Shown here: positions 28,413 through 47,877 of the stretch, in pieces | How positions within the stretch are numbered: the stretch's first letter is position 1 | Layout of the letters: the number at the start of each line of letters is the position of its first letter | Assembly: GCA_000990945.1 (NCBI GenBank) | Contig: LBQR01000025.1 | Location: 1 to 47,877 of the forward strand | DNA length: 47,877 nt | Direction of reading: 5' to 3' | Source: Candidatus Moranbacteria bacterium GW2011_GWF2_35_54 | Lineage (GTDB): Bacteria; Patescibacteriota; Minisyncoccia; Moranbacterales; UBA9337 | Made by a program: the position numbers and the translations under genes | Notes under the pieces: generated by a model | Database searches by the model: none | What the model saw: the letters and a program-made list of their open reading frames with translations, nothing else | What the model was told of the DNA's origin: nothing

Positions 28413-29582
28413 TTAATTTTCCGAAGAAAAAATATCAGTTTTGCTCTCTGCTTCCTTAGATAATTTGTCGATAATCAATCTTCCACTCTCCTTATTGGTA
28501 GCAACCATGAGATAATCACCCACCACAGCGTAATCTAATGATAAATCTAGACTTTTATTCAAATTGACATATCGAATGATATTGCCATTATAGTTGCTCT
28601 CGCCAAACTTACTAGCTGAGATATTTTCGGGCTTAGCATATGTAAACAATGCTTCTATATTTTTAACTAGGGTTCTTTCGTTTTTAACTAAGTTTGTTTT
28701 TAATAAATCTTTATTTTTTGTACCCACAACAACGCTAACTCTTTTTATGTCTTTATTTTTGTATAGAAATAAAGAAAAATTATCTGGGGATAGGTTATTT
28801 ACAACATTAGGACTCAAATATATTTTAAAATTATCAATAAAATTCTTAAATAAAATCGGCTTATTATTCTTATCTACTACTAAAAACTCCAGTTGATTGC
28901 CACTATATTTTTCCATTTCTATAAATTTTCTTTCAATTATAGATTTAATTCCAAGTTGGTCAAATTCTTCATCATTCACAACCATAAAATTAACTTTATC
29001 GGAAAATCCACTTTTATCATCCGCTAAGTCCTTTATGGCATTAGTAGAATTATTCTCTGGATTAGCACTGCTCTTCTTGTTTGAATCCGCAGTTATCCCT
29101 GATTTAGAGATATCATTATCTTTTTCATCTCTCATAAACCAAATGTAATATCCGCCCGCACCAAGCAATAAAATTATTACAAAAATTATCCCATAAATAA
29201 AGGTACTACTTTTTTCATTAAGTGTTTCAAAACTCGCCATATCCGCATTTTTAACACTTGGGGGAGCTTCCGTCTCTGCAGTAGGTATATGCGGATAACT
29301 ATTTAAATTTTTTGGCATAGTGCCCGATCTCGCCCCTATATTATCTGCTTCTTTGGATAAGCCGTCACTTGCTTTATTTTCTAAATTATTTTCTACGTTG
29401 ATAGCAACAGTCTTACTCAGAAATGGGCTACCTTCTTTGTTATAATCCTCTGCTATTCCATCACTGCTCTCTTCTATGGCATTATCATTTTCACCCAAAA
29501 GATCTTTTTTCATGGTGTGGAATTTCACTGATTCTAAATATTCATTTTCAGATTTTGTTTTGTTATTATTTTTATTGAACAT
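28413..29582 (-). CDS. Hypothetical single-pass membrane protein (389 aa)
   Basis: Low-complexity N-terminal region, one TM segment (FIYGIIFVIILLLGAGGYYIWF) and a C-terminal globular part. No family recognised. Confidence 0.6.
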   Translation of the reverse strand: MFNKNNNKTKSENEYLESVKFHTMKKDLLGENDNAIEESSDGIAEDYNKEGSPFLSKTVAINVENNLENKASDGLSKEADNIGARSGTMPKNLNSYPHIPTAETEAPPSVKNADMASFETLNEKSSTFIYGIIFVIILLLGAGGYYIWFMRDEKDNDISKSGITADSNKKSSANPENNSTNAIKDLADDKSGFSDKVNFMVVNDEEFDQLGIKSIIERKFIEMEKYSGNQLEFLVVDKNNKPILFKNFIDNFKIYLSPNVVNNLSPDNFSLFLYKNKDIKRVSVVVGTKNKDLLKTNLVKNERTLVKNIEALFTYAKPENISASKFGESNYNGNIIRYVNLNKSLDLSLDYAVVGDYLMVATNKESGRLIIDKLSKEAESKTDIFSSEN

Positions 29583-29703
29583 ATTTAAGAAGTAATTTTT
29601 TATATACTTATATTATAACATTTTTCACTTATTGCCAAATAAAAAACATAGAACATTAAAACAATCGAGCATTAAAACACTAGAACTCAATTTATTAGCC
29701 CAA

Positions 29704-29735
29704 TAAAAAGCGATTCACTTGCGAATCGCTTTTTA
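29704..29735 (-). terminator. Terminator downstream of pnp
   Basis: GCGATTC-ACTTGC-GAATCGC stem flanked by A5 and T5 runs. Confidence 0.65.
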
Positions 29736-29752
29736 AAAAATAATTTTAAGTT

Positions 29753-31821
29753 TTATTTCTTTGCATCTTTCATGGAGAGATTTATCCTGCCCATTTTATC
29801 AATTTCTTTAACTTTTACCATCACCATATCTCCTACTTTAACCACATCATCAACTTTATTGACACGTTGCTCTGATAGCTCTGAAATATGAATTAATCCA
29901 TCTTGACCTGGTAACAATTGAGCAAAAGCTCCAAAATCCATTATTTTAACTACTTTAGCATTAAAAATTTCTCCAGCCTTTACTTCTCGGGTAAGATTTT
30001 CCACCCATTCCCTAGCTTTATCGGCAGAAACTTGATCTGGAGAAGTGATGAAAACTAGTCCGCTGTCTTCTATGTCAATTTGCACTCCAGTTTCGTCAAT
30101 AATTTCATTGATAACTTTTCCACCGGGTCCGATTACTGAACGAATTTTATCTGGGTTGATTTGAAGGGTAATAATTCTCGGTGCGTAAGGAGACATTTCT
30201 TTTCTCGGTTCAGCTATTACCTTGAGCATTTCTCCCATTATAAACATCCGACTTTCTTTAGATTGAGTCAAAACATTTTTTAACATTTCAATTGTTACAC
30301 CATCTACTTTTACATCCATTTGTAACGCAGTTATGCCCTTTTCTGTTCCAGCTGCTTTAAAATCCATATCCCCGTAATGATCTTCCATTCCTTGAATATC
30401 ACTTAGAACTTTAAATTCATTATCATTTTTGCCCACAATTATTCCCATCGCAATTCCACTCACCGGTCTTTTTATCGGTACCCCAGCATCCATAAGAGAT
30501 AATGTTGAGATTCAAGCACTTCGGAAACCAAAAGCATCGTATAGGGAAATTCTTCTTTAGATGGAAGAACGGGAATTAAAGCTTTTTCAGCTAGCGCCCC
30601 ATGTCCAATTTCTCTTCGGCCCGGTCCGCGCATAAACCTAACTTCTCCCACAGAAAAAGGAGGGAAATTATAATGATGAATATATCTCTTTTTCATATCC
30701 ACCTCCATAGTATCAATTATTTGTTCGTCTCCTGGAGATCCTAAGGTTGTCACAGTCAAAGCTTGAGTTTCACCCCTAGTAAAAAGTCCAGTCCCATGAG
30801 TTCTTGGTAAAATCCCTGTTTGAATAGTAATTTTTCTAACTTCTTTAAGACCTCTACCGTCGGGGCGTTTATCGCTCTCGATAATATTTTTATGCACCAT
30901 TTCATCGCAAACTTCATCCAATATAAGATTGGCAATATCTTTTCTTTTATCAAAATCTTCGGGATGATTTTCTTTAATATATTCTAACACTTCATCTTTT
31001 ATTTCGCCCACGGCTTTTTCCATTTCCTTCTTTTCTTTTATGTACAGAGCTTGCTCAAGTTTTTCAGTTGCAAAAAGATCTTTAATCTTCTTTTCAAACT
31101 CGGCATCTCCCTGAAGAAGAGCTGGCTCGGATTTTTCTTTGCCCGACTCTTTTTGAATATCTTTTATAAATTTAGCTATTTTAGACAAAGCGTTTTGTCC
31201 GAATTCAAAAGCTTCTAGAATGTCTTCTTCTGGAATTTCCTTAGCGGCCGCCTCTATCATATTGGTCTTATCTTCAGTTCCAGCAATTACCAAATTTAAA
31301 TCCCCATCCTTAAGATCCCCATTAATTGGATTGAGCACTAACTCACCATTAATCTTTCCTACCTTGACTGCTCCAATTGGACCATTCCAAGGAACATTGG
31401 AAATAGAAAGCGCTGCTGAAGCTGCAATAATAGAAACTATATCCGGATCATTTTCCCCATCAATAGAGAGAACTGTTATTATAACTTGCACCTCATTTCT
31501 CATTCGACCATTAAATAAAGGCCTGATTGATCTATCAATCATTCTTCCTGTCAAAACAGCATCGTCAGAAGGACGTCCTTCTCTTTTAATAAATCGGGAT
31601 CCCTTTATTTTTCCCGCAGCATAATAGCGCTCTTCATAATCCACCATCAAAGGGAAATATCCCATATTGCTAGCTGCACCAGTTTTCATAACCGCTGTAG
31701 CCAGAACTACTGTGTCTCCATAGCTAACTTTTACAGCTCCGCTAGCTTGTTTAGCTAAAACTCCGGTTTCTATGCGAAGTTCTCGACCTCCAATTTGGAG
31801 AGTCCATTTTTTCTCTTCCAT
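29753..31821 (-). CDS. pnp: Polyribonucleotide nucleotidyltransferase (PNPase), split into two ORFs by a short deletion/frameshift
   Basis: 30472..31821 encodes RNase PH domain 1 and most of domain 2. 29753..30493 encodes [17 protein letters not shown]..., KH and S1 domains. At the junction the motif NGSSSMA.VCG expected between VLES and [10 protein letters not shown] is absent and the frame shifts. Confidence 0.9.
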
Positions 31822-32197
31822 ATTTTATTTATGATTTTGAAAGAATCTTGAAACAAGGAATTTAAAATAATTTTAAACTTACACGATTAAATTCATATTC
31901 GAGTTATTAGAACGTAATTGGAGTATTAGAGTCGCTATTGAAAATATAAATGCGACTCGAATAATTCGAATAAGCACACAAATAACGCTAATGGATAAAA
32001 TGCGTAGATTATGTAAAATTATTACAAATTTCAGGTTTCAAGTGTAAGTTTCTTCCAAAATCAAATTTATTAATTACTAATTAACTTCTTGTACTATAGT
32101 TCAAATTTGTACATTTGTCAAAAAATAAAAACACATTTTTTAGGTGCGCTCTTATACAAAAAAAATATTCAATTTAATCATCTTTTCCTGTATTAAG

Positions 32198-32271
32198 CGG
32201 GAGCGACCGGACTCGAACCGGCGACCTATTGCGTGACAGGCAATCGCTCTAACCAGCTGAGCTACGCCCCC
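32198..32271 (-). tRNA. tRNA-Asp (GTC)
   Basis: Hand-folded: acceptor GGGGGCG/CGCTCCC, D arm GCTC..GAGC, anticodon arm ATTGC-CTGTCAC-GCAAT, T arm GCCGG-TTCGAGT-CCGGT. CCA not encoded. Confidence 0.85.
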
Positions 32272-32355
32272 GTTTCATGTATCATACAACATGAAGCATA
32301 CAGCAAATTAAAAAGATTTGTTCTATGTTTCATGCTACATGTTTATATATTTTTG

Positions 32356-32429
32356 TACCAGGAGAGAGATTCGAACTCTCGACCTCAGGCTTATGAGTCC
32401 TGCGCTCTAACCAACTGAGCTATCCTGGC
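32356..32429 (-). tRNA. tRNA with CAT anticodon (elongator Met or lysidine-modified Ile2)
   Basis: GCCAGGATAGCTCAGTTGGTTAGAGCGCAGGACTCATAAGCCTGAGGTCGAGAGTTCGAATCTCTCTCCTGGTA. Cloverleaf folds, T loop TTCGAAT, anticodon loop CTCATAA. Confidence 0.8.
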
Positions 32430-32528
32430 ATTTTAGCATTTAGTATAAAGTATTTTGAATTTAGTATTCAAAAAAACTTGATACAAAATACAAAATACTT
32501 AATACCAGATACTCCTGCTCATTACTTG

Positions 32529-32602
32529 TTGCGGGGGCCGGATTCGAACCGGCGACCTCCTGGTTATGAGCCAGACGAGCTGCCAGACTGCTCTACCCCG
32601 CG
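32529..32602 (-). tRNA. Initiator tRNA-fMet (CAT)
   Basis: CGCGGGGTAGAGCAGTCTGGCAGCTCGTCTGGCTCATAACCAGGAGGTCGCCGGTTCGAATCCGGCCCCCGCAA. Has the C1-A72 mismatch and is close in sequence to the E. coli initiator tRNA as I recall it. Confidence 0.85.
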
Positions 32603-32715
32603 GTGTAAAATTCGCTTTATTTTAAAACACTTATCAAATAATATTACACTTTACTCTCGTTGTCAATAAAACGTAAACAAAACAGTCTTGTCAAAACAGT
32701 CTTAAATAAATCCAG

Positions 32716-33936
32716 CTATTTAATGTTGTCCATTAAGCCGTACATTGGTTGTAACATCGCGATAGCAAAAAAACCCACGGCAATTCCCATAAACAACATC
32801 AAAACCGGCTCGACTATGGAAGAAATATTTTTCGTCACTTGGTTTACCTCGTCTTCGTAAAATTCAGCCATTTTAATCAAAATCGCTTCTGTCTCTCCGG
32901 TTTGTTCTCCTACCTCAATCATTTGCTTGACCAAAACAGGAAATATTTTCTCATTTTCACCGATAACCTTGCTTAAATCTATTCCTTTTTGAAGTTGCTT
33001 TATGCTATCTCTCAATGCCTTTTTATAATAATAATTAGAAAGAGTATTGGCAACTATTTTTAGAGCATCTAAAGATGTTACTCCGCTTTTCAACAAGGAA
33101 CTATAAATTCTAGAAAACCTAGCACAATTTGTTTTTATAACTATATTATTAATAGCGGGTAATTTTAAAGAAATAAAACTTATAGCTTTCTTTCCCGCTT
33201 TGGTCTTCATAGCCAATCTCAAGAAAATAACAAAGACAATCATTGCTATTAAAACAATAACACTATGCTCCTTGAACAAATCACTCATGGCTATTATGAA
33301 TTGCGTGCTTTTGGGAAGTTCCACATCCATATCCTTGAAAACTCCAGTCATCTGGGGAAGCACATAGGTGAGCATCAAAATAGCCACTCCTGTCATTGCA
33401 ACCATAATAACAGCTGGATACATGAGCGCTCCTCGTACTTTACTTAAAAGGGCGTGTTCTTTTTCTAACTGAACTGACACTATGGTCAAGGTTTCATCCA
33501 AATTACCGCCAGTTTCTCCAATTTTTACCATATTCACAAAAAGTTCGCTAAAAACACTGGGATATTTTGCCATTCCATCTGAAAGATTTTTTCCTGCTTT
33601 GATATCCTCATAAATAGCTAATAAAATCTGACTGAATTTTTTATTTTTTGTTTGATCAGCCAAATTCCTTATCGACTTTGAAACCGTCAAGCCCGAGCTT
33701 ATCATCACACTCAAATTTCTAGCAAACATCATTTTGTCCTTAAGGGCAATTTTTGTAAATCTATCCATAAAAGCTACCCTTACTTTTCCATCATCATCTT
33801 CCATTTCCCTGACCGAAGTAACCAAAAAACCATCCGCTTTTAATTGCTGAGCTATTCCTTGTTCATCTTTAGCGACTAATTCTCCGGTTCTTACTTCACC
33901 GTCATAATTCTTGGCTACATAAAGAAATTTTGGCAT
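32716..33936 (-). CDS. pilC: Type IV pilus assembly platform protein PilC (GspF family)
   Basis: 406 aa. MPKFLYVAKNYDGEVRTGEL N-terminus, two T2SSF repeats and three TM segments. Confidence 0.85.
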   Translation of the reverse strand: MPKFLYVAKNYDGEVRTGELVAKDEQGIAQQLKADGFLVTSVREMEDDDGKVRVAFMDRFTKIALKDKMMFARNLSVMISSGLTVSKSIRNLADQTKNKKFSQILLAIYEDIKAGKNLSDGMAKYPSVFSELFVNMVKIGETGGNLDETLTIVSVQLEKEHALLSKVRGALMYPAVIMVAMTGVAILMLTYVLPQMTGVFKDMDVELPKSTQFIIAMSDLFKEHSVIVLIAMIVFVIFLRLAMKTKAGKKAISFISLKLPAINNIVIKTNCARFSRIYSSLLKSGVTSLDALKIVANTLSNYYYKKALRDSIKQLQKGIDLSKVIGENEKIFPVLVKQMIEVGEQTGETEAILIKMAEFYEDEVNQVTKNISSIVEPVLMLFMGIAVGFFAIAMLQPMYGLMDNIK

Positions 33937-33961
33937 ACTTTTTTATTTGTTTTTATTTTTA

Positions 33962-34130
33962 TGACTTACACATTTGAGCTACTGCAATCTTAGTTTATGA
34001 AAAATATTATTTTTTTGAACTGCCCGCTTCGCCATAGCTTTAGCGAGGCGAGCCGTGCTACTGCGAAAGGCGAGAAAAAATGATATTTTTCAGAAACGTA
34101 TTAAACAAAAATAATATTCAAATACGTAAA
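33962..34130. repeat. Long palindromic intergenic element, copy 2 (with an extra nested GC hairpin)
   Basis: Same sequence frame as 1998-2135, plus an inserted CGCTTCGCCATAGCTTTAGCGAGGCGAGCC segment. Both copies sit just upstream of a minus-strand gene start. Confidence 0.75.
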
Positions 34131-34192
34131 TTCTAATTTTTAAGAAATATGAATTTCTTTTATTATAGCATCTTTTAAGAAAAATAAAAAAA

Positions 34193-34767
34193 TTACTGGA
34201 TAACTCTATCCACTATTCCATATTTTTTAGCTTCAATGGCACTCATAAAATAATCTCTCTCCGTATCTTCTTCTATTTTATCAAATTTTTGCCCAGTATG
34301 TTTGGCTAAAATTTCGCTTAATCTTTTTTTGGTTTTAAGGATCTGCTTAGCGTGGATATCAATATCAGTAGCTTGTCCGCGCGCGCCTCCCATCACCTGA
34401 TGAATCATTACCTCTCCGTTGGGCAAAATCATTCTTTTTCCTTTCGCTCCGGCAGCTAAAAGCAAAGAGGCGGCCGAAGCAGCTAATCCCACACAAATAG
34501 TCTGTACATCCGGTTTGACATATTGCATCGTATCATAAATAGCCAAAGCAGAAGTTACCACTCCACCAGGAGAATTTATATAAATTTTAATATCCTCTTT
34601 TGAATTCTGAGATTCCAAAAATAATAGTTGGGCAATCACAGCGTTAGCCATATTATCCAAATTATTCTATCTTTTAGCAGCCTAGAATAAATATCATAAG
34701 CTCTTTCGCCATAATTCGTTTTTTCAATTACGGTCGGAATTAAAAATTGATTTGAAGTTTTACTCAT
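34193..34767 (-). CDS. clpP: ATP-dependent Clp protease proteolytic subunit ClpP, interrupted by a short deletion/frameshift
   Basis: N-terminal piece (ATG at 34767): [39 protein letters not shown] 34193..34660 continues [15 protein letters not shown]...INSPGG...MIHQ. Only 2 nt lie between the codons for RII and DNMAN, where ClpPs I recall have about 7 residues (e.g. MLGSAID). Confidence 0.85.
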
Positions 34768-34798
34768 AATATTTTATCTCTTAGCAAGTTGAAAAAAT

Positions 34799-36062
34799 CT
34801 ACATTTTTTCCAACATCTTGAAAGCCTCTTCATTTTTTAGTATACCATTAGTATAATCGAATAATCTTTTCATATCAATTTTATCTTTAGCAAGTTTTAT
34901 TCATGGCTTCCTCAATTTCTTCGGAAGAAATTTTAATTTCTTTTTCCTTTATTATTTTTTCTAAAGCCAAAGCGGCTTTAATTCTTTTTTGGGCCTGTGG
35001 GATCCAATCCTTTTCCAAATCATCTATAGTTTTTCCCAATTGCCCCACATAATCAGCTAGGCTCATCCCCATTTGTTGGATCTGAGATTCCAATTCATGT
35101 AACATCTTGTGAACTTCTTCGTGGACCAATATTTCAGGAAGCTCATCTGATAACTCTACCTTATTTATCAAAATTTCCATCATTTCACCCCTTCTTTTCT
35201 CTTGTCTTCTGAACTCTTGTTCTTTTTTTATGCCCTCCTCGATATTCTTTTTTAATTCTTCCAAATCTTTGAAATTACCCAATGATTTAGCAAACTCATC
35301 GTTAATCACAGGAACTTCTCTTTCTTGAACTAATTTTATGACAACCTTGAACTGAGCCAGTCCCCCTGCCAAATTTTTTTCATGATATTCTTTGGGGAAT
35401 TTTAGTTCGAAATTTTTCTCCTCACCTTCTTTCATCCCCAAAAGATGATCTTCGAATCCTGGAATAAAAACTTCACTGCCTAAAATCAAATTATGATCTT
35501 TGGCTAAACCGCCTTCAATTAAAATTCCATCCTTTCGCACTTCAAAATCAATAATAATTGAATCTTCTTTTTTAGCTTCTCGTCTAACAGTAACTAATTT
35601 AGCTCTGCTTTTGGCAATTTTCTCAAGTTCCTTCAAGATATCTTCAAGAGCGATCTCTGTTTTTTCATTAGCAAAAGCTTTGTTTAGCTTACTTACTTCG
35701 TCTTTGTATTTTTTTAATTCCACCTCGGGCATCACAGAAGCAACCACCACAAATTCCAAATCAACCTGTTCTTCCAATTTAATTATATCTATTTCTGGAG
35801 ATCCGATAGTGTCCAAATTTAATTCTTTCACTTTCTGAGGATAATTCTTTTTGATTGCTTCTTCAGCTGCGGTATTCAGAATGACCTCTTTTCCAACTTT
35901 TTGCTCTACAATTTTCTTAGGAGCTTTACCTGGGCGGAACCCTTCAATTTTTATTTCTTTGGAAATTTTTTGGACAGCATCGTCTAAAAAAACTTTCCAG
36001 TTATCCCAAGCAATAACCAATTTAAATTCCACTTTTGATTTTGGCAATTTTTTAATTTCCAT
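34799..36062 (-). CDS. tig: Trigger factor, last 32 aa or so in another frame (homopolymer indel)
   Basis: MEIKKLPKSKVEFKL start at 36062 (the track start at 36113 overlaps nusA). PPIase and C-terminal domains present. After ...EEIEEAMNK the frame stops at 34887. The shifted frame reads LAKDKIDMKRLFDYTNGILKNEEAFKMLEKM to 34799. The junction is the T4 run at 34895-34898. Confidence 0.85.
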
Positions 36063-36090
36063 ACAAACATTCTCTTTATTAATAAACAAC

Positions 36091-37344
36091 TTATTTCGCT
36101 TCTTCGGTTGCAATTTCTTCCTCTTTTACTTCATCTTTAGCAACAACATCATCTTTTTTAGTTCTTTTTTCAGCACCCTCTTCGCCAACCACATCAATTT
36201 TCCAACCTGTTAGCTTGGCTGCCAATCTAACATTTTGTCCTTTTTGTCCAATAGCTAAAGACAATTGATCACTTGGTACCATAGTGATAGCCTCTTTTGC
36301 TTCCTCGTCTTTAATTTTTACTCCCAAAACTTTGGCCGGACTAAGCGCCGCTGTTATAAATTTCTCTATATTTTCATTCCATTCAATAATATCAATTTTT
36401 TCTCCTCCTAGTTCATCAATGATGGCTTGCACTCTAGTTCCTTTTTGCCCTACACAAGAGCCGATTGGATCAATCCCCTCCTCCTTAGCAACAACTGCTA
36501 TTTTAGTTCTAGAGCCAGCTTCTCTGGCGATAGCTTTTACTTCGACTGTTCCTGAAAATATTTCCGGAACTTCCAATTCAAATAATTTCCTAACCATCTC
36601 AGGATGAGTTCTGCTTAAAATTATACCAGGACCTCTATTGTCAGCTTCTATTTTACCCAGATAAACTTTAAGTCTTTGTCCTATTTTATAATTTTCTCCT
36701 CTTACTTGCTCAGAAGGGAATAATACCCCCGTTGCTTTTCCAAGATCGATAAAAATATTTTGTCCTTCTATTCTTTGTACTACTCCGTTTAAAATTTCCC
36801 CTTCTTTTTCTTTGTATTCTTCATACATCGCATCTTTCTCAGCTTCTCTAATTCTTTGAATAATAACTTGTTTAGCTGTTTGAGCCGCTACTCTACCATA
36901 ACTTTCTTGAGTTTCTAATTCTGTCTCAATTACATCTCCGACTTTTATATCCTTCTTAATCTTTAAGGCTTCTTCTAATTTAATATCCCTTTCTGGATTA
37001 AATCTAGCCATCTTTTCTTCTTCGCTCTCTTTTTTATCTTTAACCACAACTTTTTTAACGCCTTCTTCCTCATCTTCCTCGAACTCAACAAATTCCCGAA
37101 CGCTTTCATCAACTACTTCTTTTATTAAGAAAAATTTAACCCCACCATCAACACCGCCTATTTCAGCCCGAATATTTTGGCTCTTTTTGCCATAATCTTT
37201 TTTGTAAGCTGCGGCCAAGGCGGCCTCCACTGTTTGCATCACCTTATCTTTATTTATACCTTTCTCATCACAAATTTGAGAAATGGCGCTGTTAAATTCA
37301 TTTGAATTTATACCAGCTCTTTGCTCTTCTTGTTTTTTTGCCAT
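36091..37344 (-). CDS. nusA: Transcription termination/antitermination factor NusA
   Basis: NusA N-terminal domain, S1 domain (GEILNGVVQRIEGQNIFIDLG) and two KH domains (GSRTKIAV..., GQKGQNVRLAAKLTGWKIDV). Confidence 0.9.
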   Translation of the reverse strand: MAKKQEEQRAGINSNEFNSAISQICDEKGINKDKVMQTVEAALAAAYKKDYGKKSQNIRAEIGGVDGGVKFFLIKEVVDESVREFVEFEEDEEEGVKKVVVKDKKESEEEKMARFNPERDIKLEEALKIKKDIKVGDVIETELETQESYGRVAAQTAKQVIIQRIREAEKDAMYEEYKEKEGEILNGVVQRIEGQNIFIDLGKATGVLFPSEQVRGENYKIGQRLKVYLGKIEADNRGPGIILSRTHPEMVRKLFELEVPEIFSGTVEVKAIAREAGSRTKIAVVAKEEGIDPIGSCVGQKGTRVQAIIDELGGEKIDIIEWNENIEKFITAALSPAKVLGVKIKDEEAKEAITMVPSDQLSLAIGQKGQNVRLAAKLTGWKIDVVGEEGAEKRTKKDDVVAKDEVKEEEIATEEAK

Positions 37345-37661
37345 ATTATTTGGTAATTAGTTGATTGGTAGCTAGCGACAACTAGGTCTATGCTCAGAAA
37401 CCAAAAAACTATAAATTATTACTTTATTATACTCTTTATATTATTTATAAAAAAAGATCCGCTAACCAGCGAATCCGCACCTCCTTCAACTTCACCCCTA
37501 TCCTAGCAGATTTAAATGAATTTGTCAAAAGATTTTTTTTGTAATCCTCCTTCCTTGATCCCTCATTTCAATCCCTCAACATAACATTTGACAGACCGCT
37601 TTTTCTCTGCTATTTTTGTTTACTAACCTTTAATAGCATTTTCTAGGATTTATTTACATTT

Positions 37662-38801
37662 ATGGCTCTCAAAATTAACGACCAAATTAAAGAAACAATT
37701 TTATCTGCCAAAAAGATACTGATTTTACTGCCTCAAAATCCCAACAATGACGCTATTGGATCTGGCCTAGCTTTTTATTTATTTTTGAAAGAAAAAAGTG
37801 TCGACTCAGACATCGCCACAAGTGATCCATTGGGAAATATTAAAAAATTAAATTTTTTGCCTCAACCGCAAGACATCCGCGACAGCGTTTTGGGTGCTCG
37901 AGATTTTATTTTATCCTTCAATACCAAATACAATAAAATAACCAGCATAAAAACCGAAGAGCTAGCCGAGGAAACGAGAATACACATTACCCCTGAAAAT
38001 GGCACTATTGATCCCAGGGATTTTTCTTTTATCCCAGCCGAATTTAAATACAATTTATTGATTTGCCTTAACTCTCCAGACAAAGAATCTTTTGGAAAAA
38101 TATTTGAAGAAAATCCTGATATTTTTTATGAAGTTCCCATTATTAATATTGATAACCACAGTACTAATGATAATTTTGGCCAGATAAATTTAATTGATAT
38201 AAAAGCTTCTTCGGTATCGGAAATTCTCTTTGATCTTTTCCACGAAATTGATCCTTCCTTAATAAAAAATGACATAGCTAAATGTATTTTAACAGGAATC
38301 ATTAGTGCCACTAAAAGTTTCCAAAACACCAAGACTACTCCTCATGCCCTCAAGATATCTTCCGATTTAATGGTTTCTGGCGCCAATCAACAAGAAATAA
38401 TTAGACACTTATTCAAAACTCAACCCTTTAACATACTCAAGCTTTGGGGAAGAATTATGTCTAAGCTAAAATGGGACGAGGAGTTGAAACTTTCCTGGTC
38501 AGTTGTTTCGATAGAAGATTTTGTGCAAAGCCGGACGGAGCCCTCCGATATTTCATTTATCCTAGATAAAATCCAAGCCAATTATGAGGCTGGAGAAATT
38601 TTTCTAATTCTTTATGCAGTCTCCAGCGAACGGGTTAAGGGAGTTTTGAAATTTTCTAATCCAGAAAAAATGCCCGTCATTCCTCCGTTTGAAAACGGCT
38701 TATTGATAGGAGATACGTTAGAATTCGACTTAGATTCTAAAAGTATTTCTGACGCGGAAACATACTGCTTGGAAAAATTAAAACAACTTTTGATAAAATA
38801 A
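37662..38801 (+). CDS. DHH/DHHA1-family phosphoesterase-like protein (NrnA-like), motifs degenerate
   Basis: NrnA-like length and layout. Motif I reads PNNDAIGS (expected PDxD...GS). Motif III reads IDNHS (expected DHH). No GGGH motif seen. Confidence 0.6.
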   Translation: MALKINDQIKETILSAKKILILLPQNPNNDAIGSGLAFYLFLKEKSVDSDIATSDPLGNIKKLNFLPQPQDIRDSVLGARDFILSFNTKYNKITSIKTEELAEETRIHITPENGTIDPRDFSFIPAEFKYNLLICLNSPDKESFGKIFEENPDIFYEVPIINIDNHSTNDNFGQINLIDIKASSVSEILFDLFHEIDPSLIKNDIAKCILTGIISATKSFQNTKTTPHALKISSDLMVSGANQQEIIRHLFKTQPFNILKLWGRIMSKLKWDEELKLSWSVVSIEDFVQSRTEPSDISFILDKIQANYEAGEIFLILYAVSSERVKGVLKFSNPEKMPVIPPFENGLLIGDTLEFDLDSKSISDAETYCLEKLKQLLIK

Positions 38802-38893
38802 AAAAACAACACCCAAAATATTTCTTAAAACCAACCTCAAAATTGGTTTTTGTGATATAATACAGATGCACCCTAAAATAAAAAAATAAAAAT

Positions 38894-41800
38894 ATGATTA
38901 CTATAGTTACCGATAAGCAAAACAAAGAACAGGATACAAAAAAAGTTGACCTTATAAATAAAAAAATTTCCACGTTCAACCGTGAAGAAGAAGAGCAAAT
39001 AGCCGCTTCTTTAGCCAAAGATCTAAACTTATTATATGTTGACTTAAATATTTTTCCTTTAGACATAGAAGTTTTGAGGAATATATCTCAAGAGGATTCC
39101 ATTAATTTTAAAATTGGAGTAATTAAAAAAATTGGGAAAAAAAGCCAAATAGTAGTTTCTGATCCAACCAATGAAGCCACTTTAAACTATTTGAAATCAC
39201 TCAAGGAAGAGAAAGGATGGGAAATAATTGTTTGCGTAGTATCTCAATCATCCATGGATAGCCTTTGGAAAAAATATAGAGAAAACATCTTGATAGAAAA
39301 TCTTGATTTTTTCCTTATTTCACTTTCAGGGAAAGACCTGGATGAATTTGAGGAAAAATTTAAGGAATTGTTATCTCTGAAAGAACGAATGTCCGAAATG
39401 AATACCAGTGAAATATTATCTACAATATTTTCTGGGGCAATCAAAATGGGCGCCAGTGATATTCATTTTGAACCCCAAAAAACAAGCGTCCGGATGCGCT
39501 ACAGAATTGATGGAGTATTGCAAACCATAGGAGAATTTTTCTTACCCTCTTATAAGTCCATGCTTTCCAGAATAAAAATGATTGGAAAAATGAAACTAAA
39601 TTTAAAAGATATCTCTCAGGATGGACATTTTTCAATTGATATTACAGCCACCGAAGGAAATGAACGAGTTGATATTCGTGCAAGCATTATACCAGGGAAA
39701 TATGGAGAAAGTGTTGTGCTCAGGCTTCTTAACCAATCATCTATTAATGTAGACATAGAAAATTTAGGTTTAAAGGGTCTGTCTAGCGAACAAGTAGCTC
39801 TCCAATTATCCAAACCCAATGGAATGATTTTAATAACTGGACCAACTGGTAGTGGAAAAACCACTACACTGTATTCCTTTTTGCGAAAGTTAAATACCCC
39901 TAATATAAAGATTATAACCATAGAAGATCCTATTGAATACGAAATAAAAGGAATTTCGCAAACACAAGTTCAAAATGACAGAGGTTTTACTTTTAGTGAT
40001 GGATTGCGCGCCATAGTAAGACAGGATCCTGATATCATTCTGGTGGGAGAAATACGAGATAGTGAAACAGCTGAGATTTCTGTCAATGCCGCTCTCACTG
40101 GACATTTGGTTTTCTCCACTATCCACACCAACAATGCCCCCGCTTCGGTTTCTCGATTATTAGAATTGGGCGTACGTCCTTCTTTAATTGCTTCTTCTGT
40201 AAATATTTTCATGGCACAACGTTTAGTGAGGCAACTATGTCCTAAATGTAAAGAAAAATACAAACCTGCCCTCGAGACAATCGATACGATTAAAAAATTA
40301 ATTTCTATCATATCACCAAAATCCAAGATAGAAATTCCCAAAAATATAGAATTTTTGTACAAACCCAAAGGTTGCCCTTACTGTAATAATCTTGGTTACA
40401 AGGGCAGGATAGGAATATTTGAAACTCTTACCATCAACGACAAAATGGAAAAATTAATTATTGAAATGGCCAGTGAAAGCGATCTAACTAAAGCAGCTCT
40501 TGAAGATGGAATGGTAACAATGACTCAAGACGGGATAATAAAAGTTCTTGAGGGAATAACCTCTATGGATGAAGTTTGGAGAGTTACTGGGCAAACAGCT
40601 TTCTTGCAAGACATCTATGAAGATTTGATGAATCAATCCCTATCTAGAAGCATCTTAATATCCGAAAAAAACCTAACCGAAGCCAGCATTTACGTAAAAG
40701 ACTTAACTAAATTCAATGACTGCATTAAGAAAACAAACTCTAATAATTTAATCGAAATAATAATTGCCTCCGCGCTTCTTTTGTCTACGGGAGATATTCA
40801 TATCGAACCGGAAACCAGCTCTATAAAAATAAGATTTAGAATTGACGGCATCTTGCAAGACATCGCTTCTATTCCGCTCAACGAATATCCTAATTTATTA
40901 GGAAAAATAAAACTACTTTCCGGATTAAAAACCGGCATTCGATCTGGAGTAGAGGACAGCCGCTTTAAAATATCTCTTGCTAAAAAATATGAAAACATCA
41001 CCGATACCGAGATTGATGTTCGTGTCTCTATTATCTTGGGAGGCTACGGAGAAACAGTTGTAATGCGTCTTTTGAATAAGTCCGCTACCGCATTGGAAAT
41101 AGATAAATTAGGAATTCGAAAAGAAAACTTAGATAAATTATTAGATCAAATTAAGCGGCCCTATGGAATCATACTAAATACCGGCCCTACCGGAAGTGGA
41201 AAATCAACTACATTATATAGCTTGCTAAAAGTTTTAAACAATCCTGAGGTTAAGATAATTACCGTTGAAGATCCAATAGAATATCAATTACCTGGTATTT
41301 TGCAAACTCAAGTTAATGAAATTGATGGCTATACTTTTTCCACCGCCCTACGAGCTCTTTTGCGTCAAAATCCTAATATTATAATGATTGGAGAAATTCG
41401 CGATAACGAAACAGCCAAAACAGCTATTCAAGCCTCTTTAACTGGACATCTCATTCTCTCCACGATACACACCAACGATGCTGCTTCTTCCGTGCATAGA
41501 TTGATCAATATGAATGTTGATTCAGACGAATTAGCTACCTCAGTCAATGCTTTCATGGCTCAACGTTATTCCTGAAAATACAAAAAATGAAATAGAAAAA
41601 ACTATTGCTTCAATTTCCCCTCAAGCAAAAGTAGTTATTTCTAAGATAGATAAAATATACCAACCAAAAGGTTGCGAAAAATGCAACTATCTCGGCTACA
41701 AGGGCCGATCCACTATCAGCGAGGTTCTTGTAATTGACAAAGAAATCGAGAAATTAATTTCTTTAAATGCTCTCTCTTCAGAAGTAAAAAGTAAAGCCAT

Positions 41801-41906
41801 AGAAAATGGCATGCTCACAATGTATCAAGATGGAGTACTGAAAGTTCTTGAAGGAGAAACAACCCTCGAAGAAGTAAATCGCGTAGCCAAAGACGAAGAA
41901 GATTAA
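38894..41906 (+). CDS. pilB: Type IV pilus/T2SS ATPase PilB (GspE family) with two complete ATPase modules fused in tandem; frameshift near the 3' end
   Basis: T2SSE_N-like N-terminal domain. Module 1: GPTGSGKTT, IITIEDPIEY, ILVGEIRD, TGHLVFSTIHTN, CPKC...CPYC. Module 2: GPTGSGKST, IITVEDPIEY, IMIGEIRD, TGHLILSTIHTN, then FMAQR followed by a frame break at about 41566-41575, then IPENTKNE...GCEKCNYLGYKGR (ORF 41547..41906). Confidence 0.85.
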
Positions 41907-41911
41907 AAAAC

Positions 41912-41942
41912 AAAAAAGTCCAGACAAGTCTGGACTTTTTTA
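41912..41942 (+). terminator. Terminator after pilB
   Basis: AGTCCAGAC-AA-GTCTGGACT perfect 9-bp stem (41917-41936) followed by T6. Confidence 0.8.
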
Positions 41943-42303
41943 GTTGCGCTTATTGATCTGCAGACAGTCCCAAAAAATAAATTTTCCAGGTAGAGAACGG
42001 TGTCGAGGTATGACGCAGCCGAAACCACCTCACCCATATCTGGACGAAAGCTCCCAAATTGAACAATAAAAACAACTTTATTCTTCAATCTTCTTTTTGC
42101 CATTTCTCATGACTTTTAATACTAGCATATCTTTATTTTTCTGTCAAGAGGTGATATAATGAGCATAAGTCACGAATCGACTCGAATCCAACTCAAATAA
42201 TCTCGAATGAAAAGATAAACTTATTAATCACACAATGACATTGATTATATTTATTCGTGCTTATTAGCGAAATAATTAGCGTAGCTTCGTGATTTATATC
42301 ATT

Positions 42304-43290
42304 ATGGTTATTACTAACTCAAAAGAACAGGAAGAAGACAAAAAAATAGATTCCACTTTAAGACCCCAAAGTTTTAACGAATATATCGGGCAAGAGAGGA
42401 TTAAAAAAAATCTGCATATTTTGCTTAGTGCGGCTAAAAAAAGAAATGAGCCCGTAGAGCATATTTTACTTTATGGACCTGCCGGCCTCGGGAAAACCAC
42501 TCTGTCTAATATTATCGCCAAAGAAATGAATGTGGGCATAAAAATAACTTCTGGTCCGGCCATTGAAAGAGTGGGCGATTTGGGATCAATCCTAACTAAT
42601 CTGAATGATGGGGATGTCTTATTTATTGATGAGATTCATCGCCTCAATAAATTGGTAGAAGAAATTCTCTACCCCGCCATGGAGGATTACAAGTTAGATA
42701 TCATTGTCGGCAAAGGTCCATCCGCTCGAACTCTTCAATTAGATTTGCCTCACTTTACTCTAATTGGTGCAACCACCCGCCTAGGATCAATTTCCAATCC
42801 TTTGCGCGATAGATTTGGCGCTATCCACAAATTAAATTTTTATGAAACTGGGGAAATTCAATCTATCATTAAGCGTTCTAGCAAAATTTTAAATATTTCC
42901 GTCAATGAAGAAGGCTGTAAAAATATTTCCGCCTGTAGCCGCCAAACACCCCGAGTGGCTAATCGCATATTAAAAAGAGTCCGCGATTTTGCACAAATGG
43001 AAAATACAGATATAATAGATAAAGAAATATCCCAACAAGCTTTAAGAATGATTGATATTGATGAGCTGGGACTTGAACCGGCAGATCGAGATATTATCCG
43101 AATAATCATAGAAAATTTCAAAGGCGGACCGGTGGGAATCCAAACCATTGCAGCCGCTACCCATGAAGAGGTGCAAACCATCGAAGATGTCTACGAGCCT
43201 TTTTTGATTCAGTGTGGATTATTGGCCCGCACTCCCCGAGGAAGAATTGTTACGGAAAAAGGCTACCTGCATCTGGGTTATGCTTATTAA
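42304..43290 (+). CDS. ruvB: Holliday junction branch-migration helicase RuvB
   Basis: [19 protein letters not shown], Walker [10 protein letters not shown], Walker B LFIDEIHR, sensor TTRLG..PLRDRFG. I prefer the ATG at 42304 over the GTG at 42289. Confidence 0.9.
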
Positions 43291-43302
43291 AATAATTGCT
43301 CG

Positions 43303-43356
43303 TTCCCCTCTCCTCCTCTCTGAGGGGGAGATGTCCGATAGGACAGAGGGGGTGGA
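43303..43356. repeat. CCCTC/GAGGG hairpin repeat (intergenic copy)
   Basis: CCCCTCTCCTCCTCTCTGAGGGGGAGATGTCCGATAGGACAGAGGGGGTGG shares the core CTCTCTGAGGGGGAGA with 23098-23148. Confidence 0.7.
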
Positions 43357-43403
43357 AAATTAATTTGAATAGTCTTATTTAAAATAAATAAAAATAAAAA
43401 AAT

Positions 43404-43649
43404 ATGAACCTTGCATTTATCGCTTTTTACTTAATATTTTTACTGGGTTGTTTCGTAGCGAGCATTTTTATAATTTATCACATTACTCGCTATTCAATTA
43501 ATAAAAAATCATCCACCATTATGCTGATTCTGTTTGTTTCCGTTTTGGTGATTTTATTTTTAATAAATTTTTCAATCTTTATAAACATAGATATCATTAA
43601 CGCTTTTAATTTTGTTTCAACTTTTAATCTCGATTCTTCATCTTTTTAA
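43404..43649 (+). CDS. Small hydrophobic hypothetical protein (81 aa)
   Basis: Two predicted TM segments. No SD and no family recognised. Confidence 0.35.
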   Translation: MNLAFIAFYLIFLLGCFVASIFIIYHITRYSINKKSSTIMLILFVSVLVILFLINFSIFINIDIINAFNFVSTFNLDSSSF

Positions 43650-43659
43650 AAATAAAATT

Positions 43660-44232
43660 ATGCAAAAATTTGAAAAGTTTCATTTTCACGGCCAACACAA
43701 TGGGGAAATAATTATTACCATAATTCGTCGCCATTGGTTTAATATCTTAGAACAGTATTTTATACTAATCGGGGTTTTGTTTTTAATGCTAGCTTCCTTG
43801 CAATTTTTGCCCATGTATTTTGCAGACAATGCTGACTTACCTATTTTCTTTTTTATTGAAAGTTTCATAATGATTCTCCTTTGGATTTATGCTTTTATTA
43901 TTTGGATAGATTTTTATTTTGATGTCTGGATTATTACCAACGAACGCATTGTTAACATCGAACAAAAAGCTCTTTTTATCAGAACAATCAGCGAACTTAA
44001 ATTTGATAAAATACAAGACACCTCCGTTAATATCGTAGGTCTTATCCCGACTATTTTAAACTTTGGTGATGTACATGTTCAGACGGCTGGCAATACCGAA
44101 AGATTTCTTTTTCACAAAGTTCCCGACCCGCAAAAAATTAAAGGCCTTATAATGAATATGCAAAGCATGACCATGCGCAAAGATGAAGCCGAGGCTATCC
44201 ATCGCATTTCCCCACTCTTACGCGGCCAATAA
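43660..44232 (+). CDS. Membrane protein with bacterial PH (bPH_2/YdbT-like) domain
   Basis: I prefer the start MQKFEKFHFHGQH at 43660. Two TM segments, then ITNERIVNIEQKALFIRTISELKFDKIQD, which is bPH-like. Confidence 0.5.
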   Translation: MQKFEKFHFHGQHNGEIIITIIRRHWFNILEQYFILIGVLFLMLASLQFLPMYFADNADLPIFFFIESFIMILLWIYAFIIWIDFYFDVWIITNERIVNIEQKALFIRTISELKFDKIQDTSVNIVGLIPTILNFGDVHVQTAGNTERFLFHKVPDPQKIKGLIMNMQSMTMRKDEAEAIHRISPLLRGQ

Positions 44233-44240
44233 AAAAAAAT

Positions 44241-44274
44241 AAAAACACCCTCTTAAAAATTGGGGTGTTTTTTG
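44241..44274. terminator. Bidirectional terminator between convergent genes
   Basis: AACACCC-TCTTAAAAATTG-GGGTGTT stem flanked by A-run and T-run. Confidence 0.65.
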
Positions 44275-44285
44275 TCCTTTATAGT

Positions 44286-46824
44286 TTAGAAGCTTACTGA
44301 GACACTGTCTGAGGCGCTTGTCTCATTGCCATTGTCGTCTTTAAGTTTGGCTTCTATCTTTATACTAGAATTGTTTTTATTGGCTGGTACTTCGTAGGTG
44401 AGATTAAATGAACTGCTACTGCTAGAATTAATTTCATCTCCCTCGGCATAAACTTTAATATTATCTATTCCAAAGGGTGCATCCGCACTCACAGAAATTT
44501 TTATTTTATTGCCATCTTTGCTGGTACTTAAGCTAATTTTGGGAGCATACTTGTCAAAGTCATCTTTATCACAATCTCCCTCGACATCTTCGTCAGAAAT
44601 ATATTTCTTTTCTTTATTCTTCTTATACCAAGCTTTTACTCCTTCTTCCCAACGAGCAAATTGCGAATCATTTTCTGGTTTATCCGGATACTCACCCTGA
44701 GGATTATCTTTGTCCACATACCATAAAATATTGTGCGCTTCTGTAATAGTTTTAGTTTTCTTTTCATTATCCGGACAATATTTATTGGCCTTGCACCATT
44801 TATCATCTTTGCCAGGAATTTCACAGACTTCTACTTTTTTCTCCGTATCCAATTTTCCTGTTAAAATATCTTTTTTGATATCTTTCATCACCTCTTCTTC
44901 ATTATACTTTGGAAATTCTTCTTTGCTATAATTTCCCAATACTTGATCCAAGAAACTTCTCCAAATTGGGGCAGCTACATTAACTCCATCTGCTCCTTCT
45001 TTCATTGGCGCATTATTATTATTACCCGCCCAAACACCCACTGCAATTGTCGGGGTGTAGCCCATTGTCCAACCATCCCGAAATTCATTGGTGGTTCCGG
45101 TTTTTGCTGCCACATTTCGATCCTCAAATTTCAAAGGATTATTTTCTCCAAAAACAGGAGCTCGATATTTATTATTAGAAATTACCGAATCCAACATTGC
45201 CACATATTCTTCTTTAACCACTCTATCGCCCTTGCTATCTTTAAATTCCTCAATAATTTTCCCGTCTTTATCTTCAATTCTCAAAATAGCTGTTTTATTT
45301 TGCTTAATTCCGTTATTTGCCAATGTCGCATATGCGCTAACATGATCTAAAAGTTGCACTTCTCCTCCACCTAAAACTAAAGATAAGCCGTAACGCTCCG
45401 GATCATTAAGTCCGTTTATTCCTAAATTCTTTGCCATACTAATACTATCTTTAACTCCAGCTAAATAAAGGGTTTTTACAGCCGGAACGTTGAGTGACAT
45501 CCCCAAGGCTTCCTTTAATTTTAATGGACCACGAAAGTTTCCGTCATAATTTTGAGGGATATAATTATCTTCACTGCCTTTATTGAAATCTGTCTCAACA
45601 TCATAGACAATTGTATCGGGAAAATATCCTTTGGTAAAAGCAGTTAAATAAACATAAGGTTTAAAGGAAGAACCAGGCTGGCGATCTCTAATTGCCACAT
45701 TAACATTCGGCTCGAAAAGACAATTTTTACCAGGGATACAGTTTTCCGGATAGCTTTCTCCAAAATAATCCTTAGAGCCAACCATTGCTAAAATTTGACC
45801 GGTCTTAGGATCCATAGCCACCAGAGCAGCATTTTCTGCTTTCCATGTTCTCCCGTTCTTCTCCACTCCGTCTTTCACAGCTTTTTCAGCAATCTGTTGT
45901 TTTTCCCAATCAAGTGTAGTATAAATCTTCATTCCTCCCTCTTCCATTTCTTGGGCTCCATATTTATTATCCAAGTATTCTTTAATATACATTATAAAAT
46001 GAGGGGCTTTAATATTTTCTCTTTTGACGACAATTTTACCCAAAACATCTGTTTCTTTATATTTTTGTGCATCTTCTTTAGATATATATCCTAAATTAGC
46101 CATCTTGTCTAAAACAGCTTCTTGATTAATTTTTAATCTATCTGTATGAGAGCCAAAAGGGGAAAAGAAAGAAGTTGCTCGAGGTAAAACAGCTACAATA
46201 GCAGCCTCATCATAGGTCAAATCTTTAGCATTTTTCCCAAAAAAAGTTTGAGCCGCCGATTCTATTCCATAAGCATTGGAACCGTAAGGGATTTCATTGA
46301 GATACATTCTTAGAATTTCGTCTTTGGAAAATTTTTGTTCTATTTCTAAAGATAAAATTACTTCTTTTATTTTTCGAGTAAAGGTTTTTTCTGAAGTTAA
46401 AATAGAATTCTTTACAAACTGCTGAGTAATTGTGGATCCTCCCTGAGCCGCACCTCTGTTTAAAACATCTTTCAATACTGCGCGAGCGATTGAAGAAAAT
46501 TTAATACCATAATGAGAATAGAAATCTTGATCTTCGGAAGCTATAGTCGCCCAACGCACACTTTGAGGCATTTCTTCAAATGAAATAAGGGTTCTTTTTT
46601 CTTCGCCATGAATTTCATACAAAATCTGTTGGCCTAGTGGACTCAGCCACCACTCTTTTATTAACTTTATTTGGATCAGGCAAATCCTTAGCAAAATAGA
46701 CAAAAACACCCACAGCTCCAATAACTGCAGTTATAAATCCAAAAAAGATCAACATTAATAAGGCTTTCCACCAAATTATCTTTCCCTCTTTATTTTTAAT
46801 TTTTCTAGCTACAAAAACTTTCAT
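44286..46824 (-). CDS. Class A penicillin-binding protein (PBP1A: transglycosylase plus transpeptidase), N-terminal TM piece in another frame
   Basis: ORF 46615..46824 gives the TM anchor ...KDLPDPNKVNKRVVAEST. ORF 44286..46721 continues GQQILYEIHGEEKR, ASEDQDFYSHYGI (GT51), SSFKP and KTGTT (transpeptidase). About 5-6 residues (the usual xIYDRxG) are missing at the junction around 46620-46650. Confidence 0.9.
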
Positions 46825-46914
46825 GTTGTAAAAATTTATATTTTTATATTACCGTTCTATTTTATCAAACTTTTGACCCATCGCGCAATGCTTTTAGATC
46901 TAAATATTAAATTC

Positions 46915-47819
46915 CTAATTTTTATAGTTATCATCTGATATTTTTAGTAAATTTTCCAATATTTTTTCGGCAACATTTATGCCAGTAGCGGCTTCAAATC
47001 CCTTAAACTGAGCTGAGGTGTTTATCTCTATTGCCAAATAACCGTTATCACTTTTAATAAAATCAATTCCTGCGTAGAAAATTTCCCCTTCTTTCATTAT
47101 CTTTGTAGCCATTTCTCTTACCTCATCATTTGCCTCTACAACTTCTGCCTTACCACCCAAAGAGATATTGGCCTTAAAATCTCCATTTTGGGCTGTTCGC
47201 TTAATTATTCCTAATATTTTTCCTCCCAAGCACAAGGCTCTATAATCAGAGCCTGCAGATTCTTTTATGAATTCTTGTAATAAATAAGAACTTCTTTTAA
47301 GAGGAACTATATTTTTTGCGCCAATTGATTTATTGATAAAAGCTACCACATCTTGAGAAGAATTTACGATAGCAACATTTTTACCCATAGAGCCTCGACA
47401 ACTTTTTATAACACACGGAAAGCCACCTATATATTTCTCGGCCAATAAACTAATTTTCCCTTCATCAAAACTATTTATCAGGACTGTTTTGGGAGTAGGA
47501 ATACTAATATTGCTAAAAAAAACACTCGCGCAATACTTATCAGAAAGATCTATTGCTTGCGCGCTAGGCCAAATTATTATCTGCTCTTTAAACCTTTTAT
47601 GCAAGCAGCCTGCCAAATAATGGTTAATAGTTGGATTGGCTACAAACCAAACAATATCGCCCCTATGTTGTGGAAAATTCCTTGATCTGTTAAGGATAAA
47701 CTATAAGAATTGACTATATAAACATCTAAGTCTTTTTTTACTGCTTCTTCTTTAAATCGCACTAAGCGTTTGCTCTCCGAATGCACATTGAAAATAATCA
47801 TCTTTCTTTTTCTAATCAT
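46915..47819 (-). CDS. ATP-grasp ligase (RimK-like), frameshifted near the 5' end
   Basis: C-terminal ATP-grasp fold (GFPCVIKSCRGSMGKNV...DYRALCLGGK...AGIDFI...AIEINT). N-terminal piece MIRKRKMIIFNVHSESKRLVRFKEEAVKKDLDVYIV is in another frame. The junction is near the C4 run at 47660-47663. Confidence 0.6.
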
Positions 47820-47877
47820 ACTATTTGTTGATACTTACTCTAAAAAATTATGAATTAATCATCATGTATAAAACGTT

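Follow-up and report, generated by a model that had tools for sequence, protein, structure and literature searches.

The 47,877-nt stretch of DNA analysed here (the window) is contig LBQR01000025.1 of Candidatus Moranbacteria bacterium GW2011_GWF2_35_54, a groundwater member of the Moranbacteria within the candidate phyla radiation (CPR), and it carries on its forward strand a pilB gene that encodes two linked PilB-type ATPase modules. The native product is a chain of 1016 amino acids (aa) in which a single N1 domain is followed by module 1, a 56-aa linker and module 2. In the deposited contig, codons 1-891 of 1016 (38894..41566, +) form an open reading frame (ORF) with two T2SSE stretches, located upstream of a contig-private 38-nt deletion (41566..41567, +) that creates a stop at 41573-41575. 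Deletion aside, this segment is identical to GenBank KKP68909.1 and to L001, the JGI contig of the best database relative (P0001, 1016 aa). As deposited, the gene appears as an 893-aa ORF (38894-41575, +) and a 119-aa ORF in another frame (41547-41906, +), which starts with an ATG at 41547 and overlaps the end of the first.

Two PilB-type modules in one chain

The N1 domain (T2SSE_N/MshEN-like, aa ~30-130; 38981..39283, +) aligns with residues 64-161 of the PilB structure 5zfr and is not repeated with the modules, each chain having one; PF05157 is recorded for many orthologues, and the window protein gave no match to it at E ≤ 0.01 in the Pfam scan. The N1-N2 linker of module 1 (aa 131-175; 39284..39418, +) is predicted to be flexible, with AlphaFold2 (AF2) predicted local distance difference test (pLDDT) values of 35-52. 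Module 1 itself (39419..40591, +), delimited by phmmer limits, invariant motifs and PDB matches, consists of an N2 domain (aa 176-290) and a C-terminal ATPase domain (aa 291-566) with Walker A at 39839-39862, the Walker B core at 40046-40060, the His box at 40097-40132 and a CxxC...CxxC site at 40238-40384 (all +). The inter-module linker, placed from the alignment and AF2, spans aa 567-622 (~56 aa; 40592..40759, +). Its second half is homologous to the N1-N2 linker of module 1, and its first part contains residues that are invariant in the 120-sequence alignment (G566, L571, Y575, L578, M579 and R585); the start of the linker is modelled by AF2 as helical with pLDDT 63-84, as compared to 35-52 for the homologous N1-N2 linker. 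In module 2 (40760..41566, +) the N2 domain (aa 623-738) is followed by the ATPase domain up to aa 891, with Walker A at 41183-41206, the Walker B core at 41390-41404 and the His box at 41441-41476 (all +). Module 2 continues in the other frame at 41568..41906 (+) with its final 112 residues (aa 905-1016 when intact), the CxxC of which is at 41673-41684.

Profile searches returned the GspE/PilB family for both modules. PF00437 (T2SSE) matched the 893-aa product in two stretches with 680 bits, and the NCBIfam profiles for PilB (TIGR02538, 883 bits) and GspE (TIGR02533, 890 bits) likewise matched in two stretches each; the curated cut-off was exceeded by the GspE/PilB profile matches (PF00437, TIGR02538). 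The 119-aa ORF matched positions 292-370 of the PF00437 profile, corresponding to the C-terminal end of the domain. Residues 34-565 align end to end with the full-length PilB structures 5zfr, 6olj and 5tsg (E ~1e-105), and the N-terminal domain together with module 1 thus constitutes a complete ordinary PilB; module 2 is matched by PilB structures with E ~1e-85. The repeated unit comprises a linker, an N2 domain and an ATPase domain. Aligned with each other over 430 aa, module 1 (aa 141-570) and module 2 (aa 571-1016, numbered on the intact orthologue) show 47% identity (E = 1e-137), and are consequently diverged copies rather than an assembly duplicate.

The nucleotide-binding and catalytic motifs are found in both modules: GPTGSGKT in module 1 and GPTGSGKS in module 2, with EDPIE, GEIRD and TGH..H.N in each. 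Across the best 120 relatives, each module has an invariant Walker A, Asp box, Walker B and His box, together with two invariant N2 arginines (R262/R277 in module 1, R710/R725 in module 2), which we take to be the arginine fingers. Four cysteines per module are likewise invariant in this set: C449, C452, C494 and C497 in module 1 and, in intact copies, C897, C899, C940 and C943 in module 2, where they are arranged as CxC...CxxC. Searched alone, module 2 scored 290-302 bits against PilB, PilF and GspE and 118 bits against PilT. A fusion of an extension with a retraction ATPase (PilB-PilT) was ruled out on these grounds, since module 2 is of the PilB/GspE type (302 versus 118 bits) and its cysteines are kept. 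The top PDB and fold matches were PilB, PilF and GspE. Foldseek, run with the AF2 monomer model as a comparison of single chains, gave a PilB fold match with a TM-score of 0.9 normalised to the target and no PDB chain that spans both modules (TMq ≤ 0.36); every solved PDB relative is single-module. A first-pass annotation of the same DNA, made from the letters alone, had described one frame with an N-terminal domain and two full ATPase units, had listed their motifs and had considered the modules diverged and GspE/PilB ATPases otherwise single-module. The ORF with its two T2SSE stretches, the module alignment and the solved PDB relatives bear out each of these points.

Integrity of the reading frame

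At the 3' side of the gene the window reads FMAQR YS* and then IPENTKNE in the next frame, a break noted in the first-pass annotation at about 41566-41575 and present as described. Intact copies, P0001 among them, read FMAQR-LVRKLCSCKEKID-IPENTKNE, with C-x-C replacing C-x-x-C. The 38 nt absent at 41566/41567 are TTAGTAAGAAAACTTTGTAGCTGCAAAGAAAAAATCGA, coding for LVRKLCSCKEKID with the C-x-C pair, and putting them back at this position generates a 1016-aa protein that matches KKP68909.1 exactly ('Type IV-A pilus assembly ATPase PilB [Candidatus Moranbacteria bacterium]'). The 1016-aa protein was found on 12 other contigs. Conversely, the 893-aa form (P0286) occurs on one NCBI contig only, the deposited window contig, and the truncations seen in other assemblies from that population differ from it (850 aa, and a partial form of 968 aa). 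Two suggestions of the annotation are thereby overturned: the first cysteine pair of module 2, believed to be missing, is gone only through the 38-nt loss, and the 3' 360 nt, believed to be possibly untranslated, are part of the repaired protein.

The same type of lesion recurs along the contig. L001 is syntenic with and nearly identical to window positions 28973-47877, and relative to it the window has seven window-only deletions of 17-38 nt and zero insertions. Similarly, the first 21 kb of the window show 0 mismatches to LBQA01000003.1 (L083) yet four further window-only deletions; of these four, three were checked, and one is a 31-32-nt gap inferred from breaks between high-scoring segment pairs. 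In total, 11 deletions of 17-38 nt, at ~945, ~1847, ~8772, ~17567, 30508/9, 34659, 34892, 41566/7, ~42062, 46635 and 47667, separate the window from near-identical public contigs (L001, L083-L086), with almost no substitutions. Placed on the gene table of L001, the seven L001-relative deletions include at least six that fall inside genes (pnp, clpP, tig, pilB, a penicillin-binding protein gene and a RimK-like gene), and as none of the six is divisible by 3 the frame is shifted in each case. The pnp gene, for example, is split into ORFs 29753-30493 and 30472-31821, and all gene calls on this contig need care.

Because selection would not leave 11 deletions, mostly gene-breaking and with housekeeping genes among their targets, next to practically no substitutions, the frame break is a sequence or assembly artefact of the deposited contig and not biology; collapsed scaffold gaps are a plausible cause of the deletions. 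A biological break, whether it gave a truncated 893-aa PilB with a separate 119-aa C-terminal piece, marked a pseudogene or reflected programmed frameshifting, would agree with the 893-aa product that the deposited contig does encode and with the ATG that opens the 119-aa ORF. Still, it is very improbable in view of the four deletions within 21 kb of mismatch-free sequence and the seven more relative to the JGI contig, of the uniform size and direction of all 11, which are losses in the window, of the six in-gene deletions that are never a multiple of 3, and of the differently truncated assemblies of the same population alongside intact copies on 12 contigs. Neither programmed frameshifting nor a gene split at 41566 was accepted, the 38-nt deletion being private to the contig.

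Distribution and conservation

The tandem form is an uninterrupted ORF of about 1005-1020 aa in at least 180 clusters (90% identity) from independent assemblies, a total that includes ~65 two-module clusters added by a second search; a search of related genomes for PilB proteins of about 1000 aa, as the first-pass annotation had proposed, is thus answered in the affirmative. The best 120 relatives measure 1005-1067 aa and have two Walker B cores each, except for P0005 with 1460 aa and three. The strict Walker A pattern occurs twice in 118 of these 120, the two exceptions being P0048, in which the second Walker A is off-pattern, and the three-module P0005. In a HMMER search with module 1 as the query against 1.84 billion 50%-identity representatives, ~15 tandem representatives of 978-1047 aa, with two stretches each, ranked first and single-module PilBs ranked after them. 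In the module alignment, the nearest of the latter, P0136 (565 aa), shares 57% identity with module 1 and 46% with module 2. The tandem sequences come from NCBI, JGI, ENA and Logan, on contigs that include ones of 0.6 and 1.27 Mb, and source names, where given, are Candidatus Moranbacteria/Moraniibacteriota, Parcubacteria group and Patescibacteria group. A contig scan for Walker A and Asp box patterns, which are universal so that the scan is no taxonomic census, returned among the matches listed no locus of other phyla with two Walker A motifs in one ORF; the only tandem gene among those matches was L002.

These data bear directly on the possibility that the fusion does not exist and that two neighbouring pilB paralogues were made to look like one gene by chimeric assembly or by a missed stop. 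This can hardly be credited, as an unbroken ORF is seen in no fewer than 180 clusters, drawn from four data sources and including megabase-scale contigs, the linker holds invariant residues, and the junction DNA between the modules, contiguous in the window and the same in L001, is also the same in independent assemblies. A chimera, or a stop or gap between the modules, which the first-pass annotation had named as the outcome that would overturn its reading, is excluded by the unbroken ORFs, the linker and the junction DNA. Mean pairwise identities for the N2 and ATPase domains are 0.69 and 0.76 in module 1 and 0.70 and 0.72 in module 2, and judged by sequence the two modules are equally conserved and under purifying selection. 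Taken jointly, the alignments and ORFs make it very probable that the fusion is real and conserved, and that the nucleotide-binding and catalytic motifs are intact in both modules.

Genomic context and origin

The tandem gene is flanked in the window by a DHH-family gene upstream (37662..38801, +) and by ruvB downstream (42289..43290, +). The order (TsaE)-DHH-pilB-...-ruvB is common to the tandem genes P0001, P0005, P0121 and P0124 in divergent lineages (loci L001, L082, L090 and L092) and is found in part around P0125 and P0129 (L091 and L089). The closest single-module genes, P0136 (L093) and P0138 (L094), have the same neighbourhood. Since tandem and closest single-module genes occupy the same slot, the tandem gene appears, from gene order and sequence, to be an in-place descendant of an ordinary pilB through intragenic duplication and not an extra paralogue. 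Across L001, L082 and L089-L094 the arrangement is (TsaE)-DHH-pilB-(small ORFs)-ruvB, often followed by bPH_2, ruvC, 7TM-transglutaminase and ATP-grasp genes, and this order of (TsaE)-DHH-pilB-ruvB is kept across Patescibacteria though PilB identity is only 40-50%. Further downstream, three RimK/ATP-grasp genes and a 7TM transglutaminase-like gene were noted (window 46915-47877, L001 18111-23051), and the pairing of ATP-grasp with 7TM transglutaminase-like genes recurs beside ruvC in L090 and L094.

A phylogeny of the two halves had also been proposed in the first-pass annotation as a means to tell a duplication from a fusion of paralogues. Duplication within the gene is supported by the neighbourhood. 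Neighbour-joining of the modules backs a single origin of all second modules weakly: those of the main family cluster together with a bootstrap of 35% and lie on longer branches, and they have derived states in common, namely the loss of R226 and the change of G370 to A. In three further lineages, represented by P0125, P0129 and P0135, the two modules of each protein are sisters (bootstrap 96-100%), with a module-module identity of 74% in P0129 (L089 3226-6213) and 55% in P0125 (L091 8001-10985), reflecting either independent duplications, which in P0129 and P0125 would be recent, or homogenisation by gene conversion.

Several single-module proteins deserve mention beside this tree. P0156 (553 aa, from a 3451-nt Logan contig) has its own N1 yet carries the module-2-like states K226, A370 and N378 and clusters with second modules in the tree; it may be related to the donor of the duplication or may have been reduced secondarily. 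P0138, P0160, P0167, P0169 and P0170 have C-terminal tails of 140-250 aa that are unrelated to the ATPase, lysine/glutamate-rich in P0138 and built on a repeated motif like LEQEQ..NP.IG(I/V) in the other four. The tails were considered as remnants of a second module and rejected, as they show no similarity to one and are low-complexity or coiled-coil-like.

Two additional architectures were encountered. P0005 is a 1460-aa PilB with three complete modules (L082 8001-12383, JGI 3300022698 Ga0248662_100121) in the same DHH-pilB position. Its modules 2 and 3 are just 59% identical, so that it is not a simple assembly repeat; a search with P0005 as the query found no second three-module protein, and P0005 is a singleton. 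An argument from two and three both dividing six is not relied on, the three-module case being one contig. P0135, of the lineages with sister modules the one that has PilC-like domains in front, consists of one ORF of 1047 aa in which a pair of PilC-like T2SSF stretches precedes two T2SSE modules, themselves each other's closest relatives (L087 6001-9144, from GCA_964384625.1, CAYLNH010000035.1; also L088, from Logan SRR7048224). This fusion of platform domains to a tandem motor is thus present in two independent assemblies, and its neighbours (sulfatase, ECF sigma factor, CBM9) do not look CPR-like.

Divergence between the modules

The asymmetry between the modules was measured at positions at least 85% conserved in 47 single-module relatives, and the residues were listed sequence by sequence for ten of these positions. 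Module 1 differs at three, of which R245H is the clearest and I330 and S396 are weaker majority changes. Module 2 differs at eleven, three by conservative I/V/F exchanges and eight by marked changes (S188G, loss of R226, Q242, G244S, P267L, G370A, D378N and G507T).

This pattern could be read as a division in which module 2 is a regulatory or scaffolding pseudo-ATPase that binds nucleotide without powering extension and module 1 is the sole motor. Such a reading would account for the residues lost from module 2 although at least 85% conserved in single-module PilBs (R226, Q242, G244, P267, G370, D378 and G507), for the nearly canonical module 1 and for the longer branches of module 2. It is nonetheless unlikely, as module 2 retains an invariant Walker A lysine, Asp box, Walker B glutamate, His-box histidines, N2 arginines and four cysteines, and is conserved to the same degree as module 1.

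Implications for ring assembly

PilB-family motors are rings of six modules. In the mechanism that we propose, an ancestor of the Moranbacteria and related Parcubacteria would have duplicated the unit of linker, N2 domain and ATPase domain inside pilB, and three of the resulting tandem chains would form one PilB-like ring of six modules, a pseudo-hexamer that would drive PilC and pilin polymerisation in the manner of ordinary PilB hexamers. The ring would carry three N1 domains rather than six, and two chemically distinct types of interface between N2 and ATPase domains would alternate around it, which may let the two modules specialise, module 1 being near-canonical and module 2 diverged. With moderate confidence, a trimer of tandem dimers is the form that we infer for the six-module ring. 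The first-pass annotation had suggested such a trimer, and with it a hard-wired alternation of open and closed subunit states, which may or may not apply.

Tandem ATPases such as KaiC, NSF/p97 and the EccC type form stacked rings, and six chains of the present protein might correspondingly build two, a module 1 ring on a module 2 ring, with one of them touching PilC. Both modules are complete and equally conserved, the ~56-aa linker is long enough for either geometry, and the stoichiometry is not fixed by any computed result, all of which would be compatible with stacking. The N2 arginines of the PilB/GspE family act within a ring. Module 2 retains its N2 domain with its two conserved arginines, and no stacked tandem was found among the PDB matches in the PilB/GspE/PilT/VirB11 group; stacked rings are accordingly judged improbable.

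A number of observations nevertheless weigh against the single ring of three chains and its assignment to a pilus motor. The AF2 monomer has well-folded domains and a mean pLDDT of 77 but a predicted TM-score (pTM) of 0.48, too low to place the modules reliably with respect to each other. The labels of the PDB entries give C2 'ccocco' for PilB, and C3 'ocococ', the pattern resembling a trimer of dimers, for PilT4 only. The 35% bootstrap lends weak support to a common origin of the module 2 copies as a whole, and the genes next to the tandem pilB within the window include no pilin, pilM/N/O or pilT. Besides pilB, the one type IV pilus gene detected across the window is pilC, encoding the T2SSF platform protein (32716..33936, -; Pfam T2SSF E = 2e-56, T2SSF_N and T2SSF in L001), 5 kb upstream of pilB with housekeeping genes in between; the window scan returned no pilin motif.

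With both the observed and the proposed parts considered together, the locus is probably an ordinary pilB, internally duplicated, that works as a type IV pilus extension ATPase. A broader proposal is tentative, namely that covalent linkage of PilB modules is a recurrent natural solution, arising in the main Moranbacteria/Parcubacteria family, in at least two to three further lineages with sister modules, in the version preceded by PilC-like domains and in the three-module singleton, and that the main-family trimer of heterodimer-like chains combines divided labour, alternating sites and only three N1 contacts to the platform; we regard it as possible rather than probable.

Relation to known motors and significance

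Known PilBs (Geobacter 5TSG, 5TSH, 6OLJ and 5ZFR; Myxococcus 3JC8) are like the tandem protein in the N1-N2-ATPase order, the ATPase motifs and the tetracysteine site. They contain one N2 and ATPase module per chain and form homohexamers, whereas the tandem protein links two modules with one N1 per pair. In PilF the N-terminal GSPII/N1 domains are multiplied, with one ATPase module retained. The Thermus thermophilus protein (5IT5, 5OIU and 6F8L; ~300 bits) is thus, like the tandem protein, a PilB-type motor enlarged by internal duplication, but in the tandem protein it is the ATPase module itself that is duplicated. The engineered GspE-Hcp1 (4KSR/4KSS), which was among the structure matches, belongs to the same ATPase family and similarly uses a covalent fusion that forces ring stoichiometry; it differs in being artificial, in having an unrelated ring protein as partner and in having one ATPase per chain. 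The PilT4 C3 'ocococ' hexamers (6OJY, 6OLK) are alternating two-state rings such as a trimer of dimers would resemble, although PilT is a retraction ATPase, unlike the PilB/GspE-type module 2.

Searches of the literature available as full text, subscription-only papers aside, turned up no account of a tandem PilB/GspE ATPase, and the CPR pilus survey PMC6744442 does not mention one. Public databases have nevertheless contained the sequences for years, as a cluster with EKE22010.1, KKP68909.1 and several later records, under the names 'PilB', 'GspE/PulE family protein' and 'hypothetical protein'. Entries named 'GspE/PulE family protein' conceal the tandem architecture, and the 893-aa entry is a truncated artefact.

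How ATP hydrolysis is coordinated among the six subunits of PilB/GspE motors is still debated from structures of symmetric homohexamers. A natural chain with two non-identical modules would permit position-specific Walker A and Walker B mutations in each module, for which homohexamers need engineered covalent constructs, and would fix the subunit order for cryo-electron microscopy. The tandem PilB is a motor of this kind, ordered covalently by nature. With half as many N1 domains, it is also relevant to how many platform or PilM contacts the motor requires. For the CPR, the tandem gene shows a pilus motor that has been remodelled in otherwise strongly reduced genomes.

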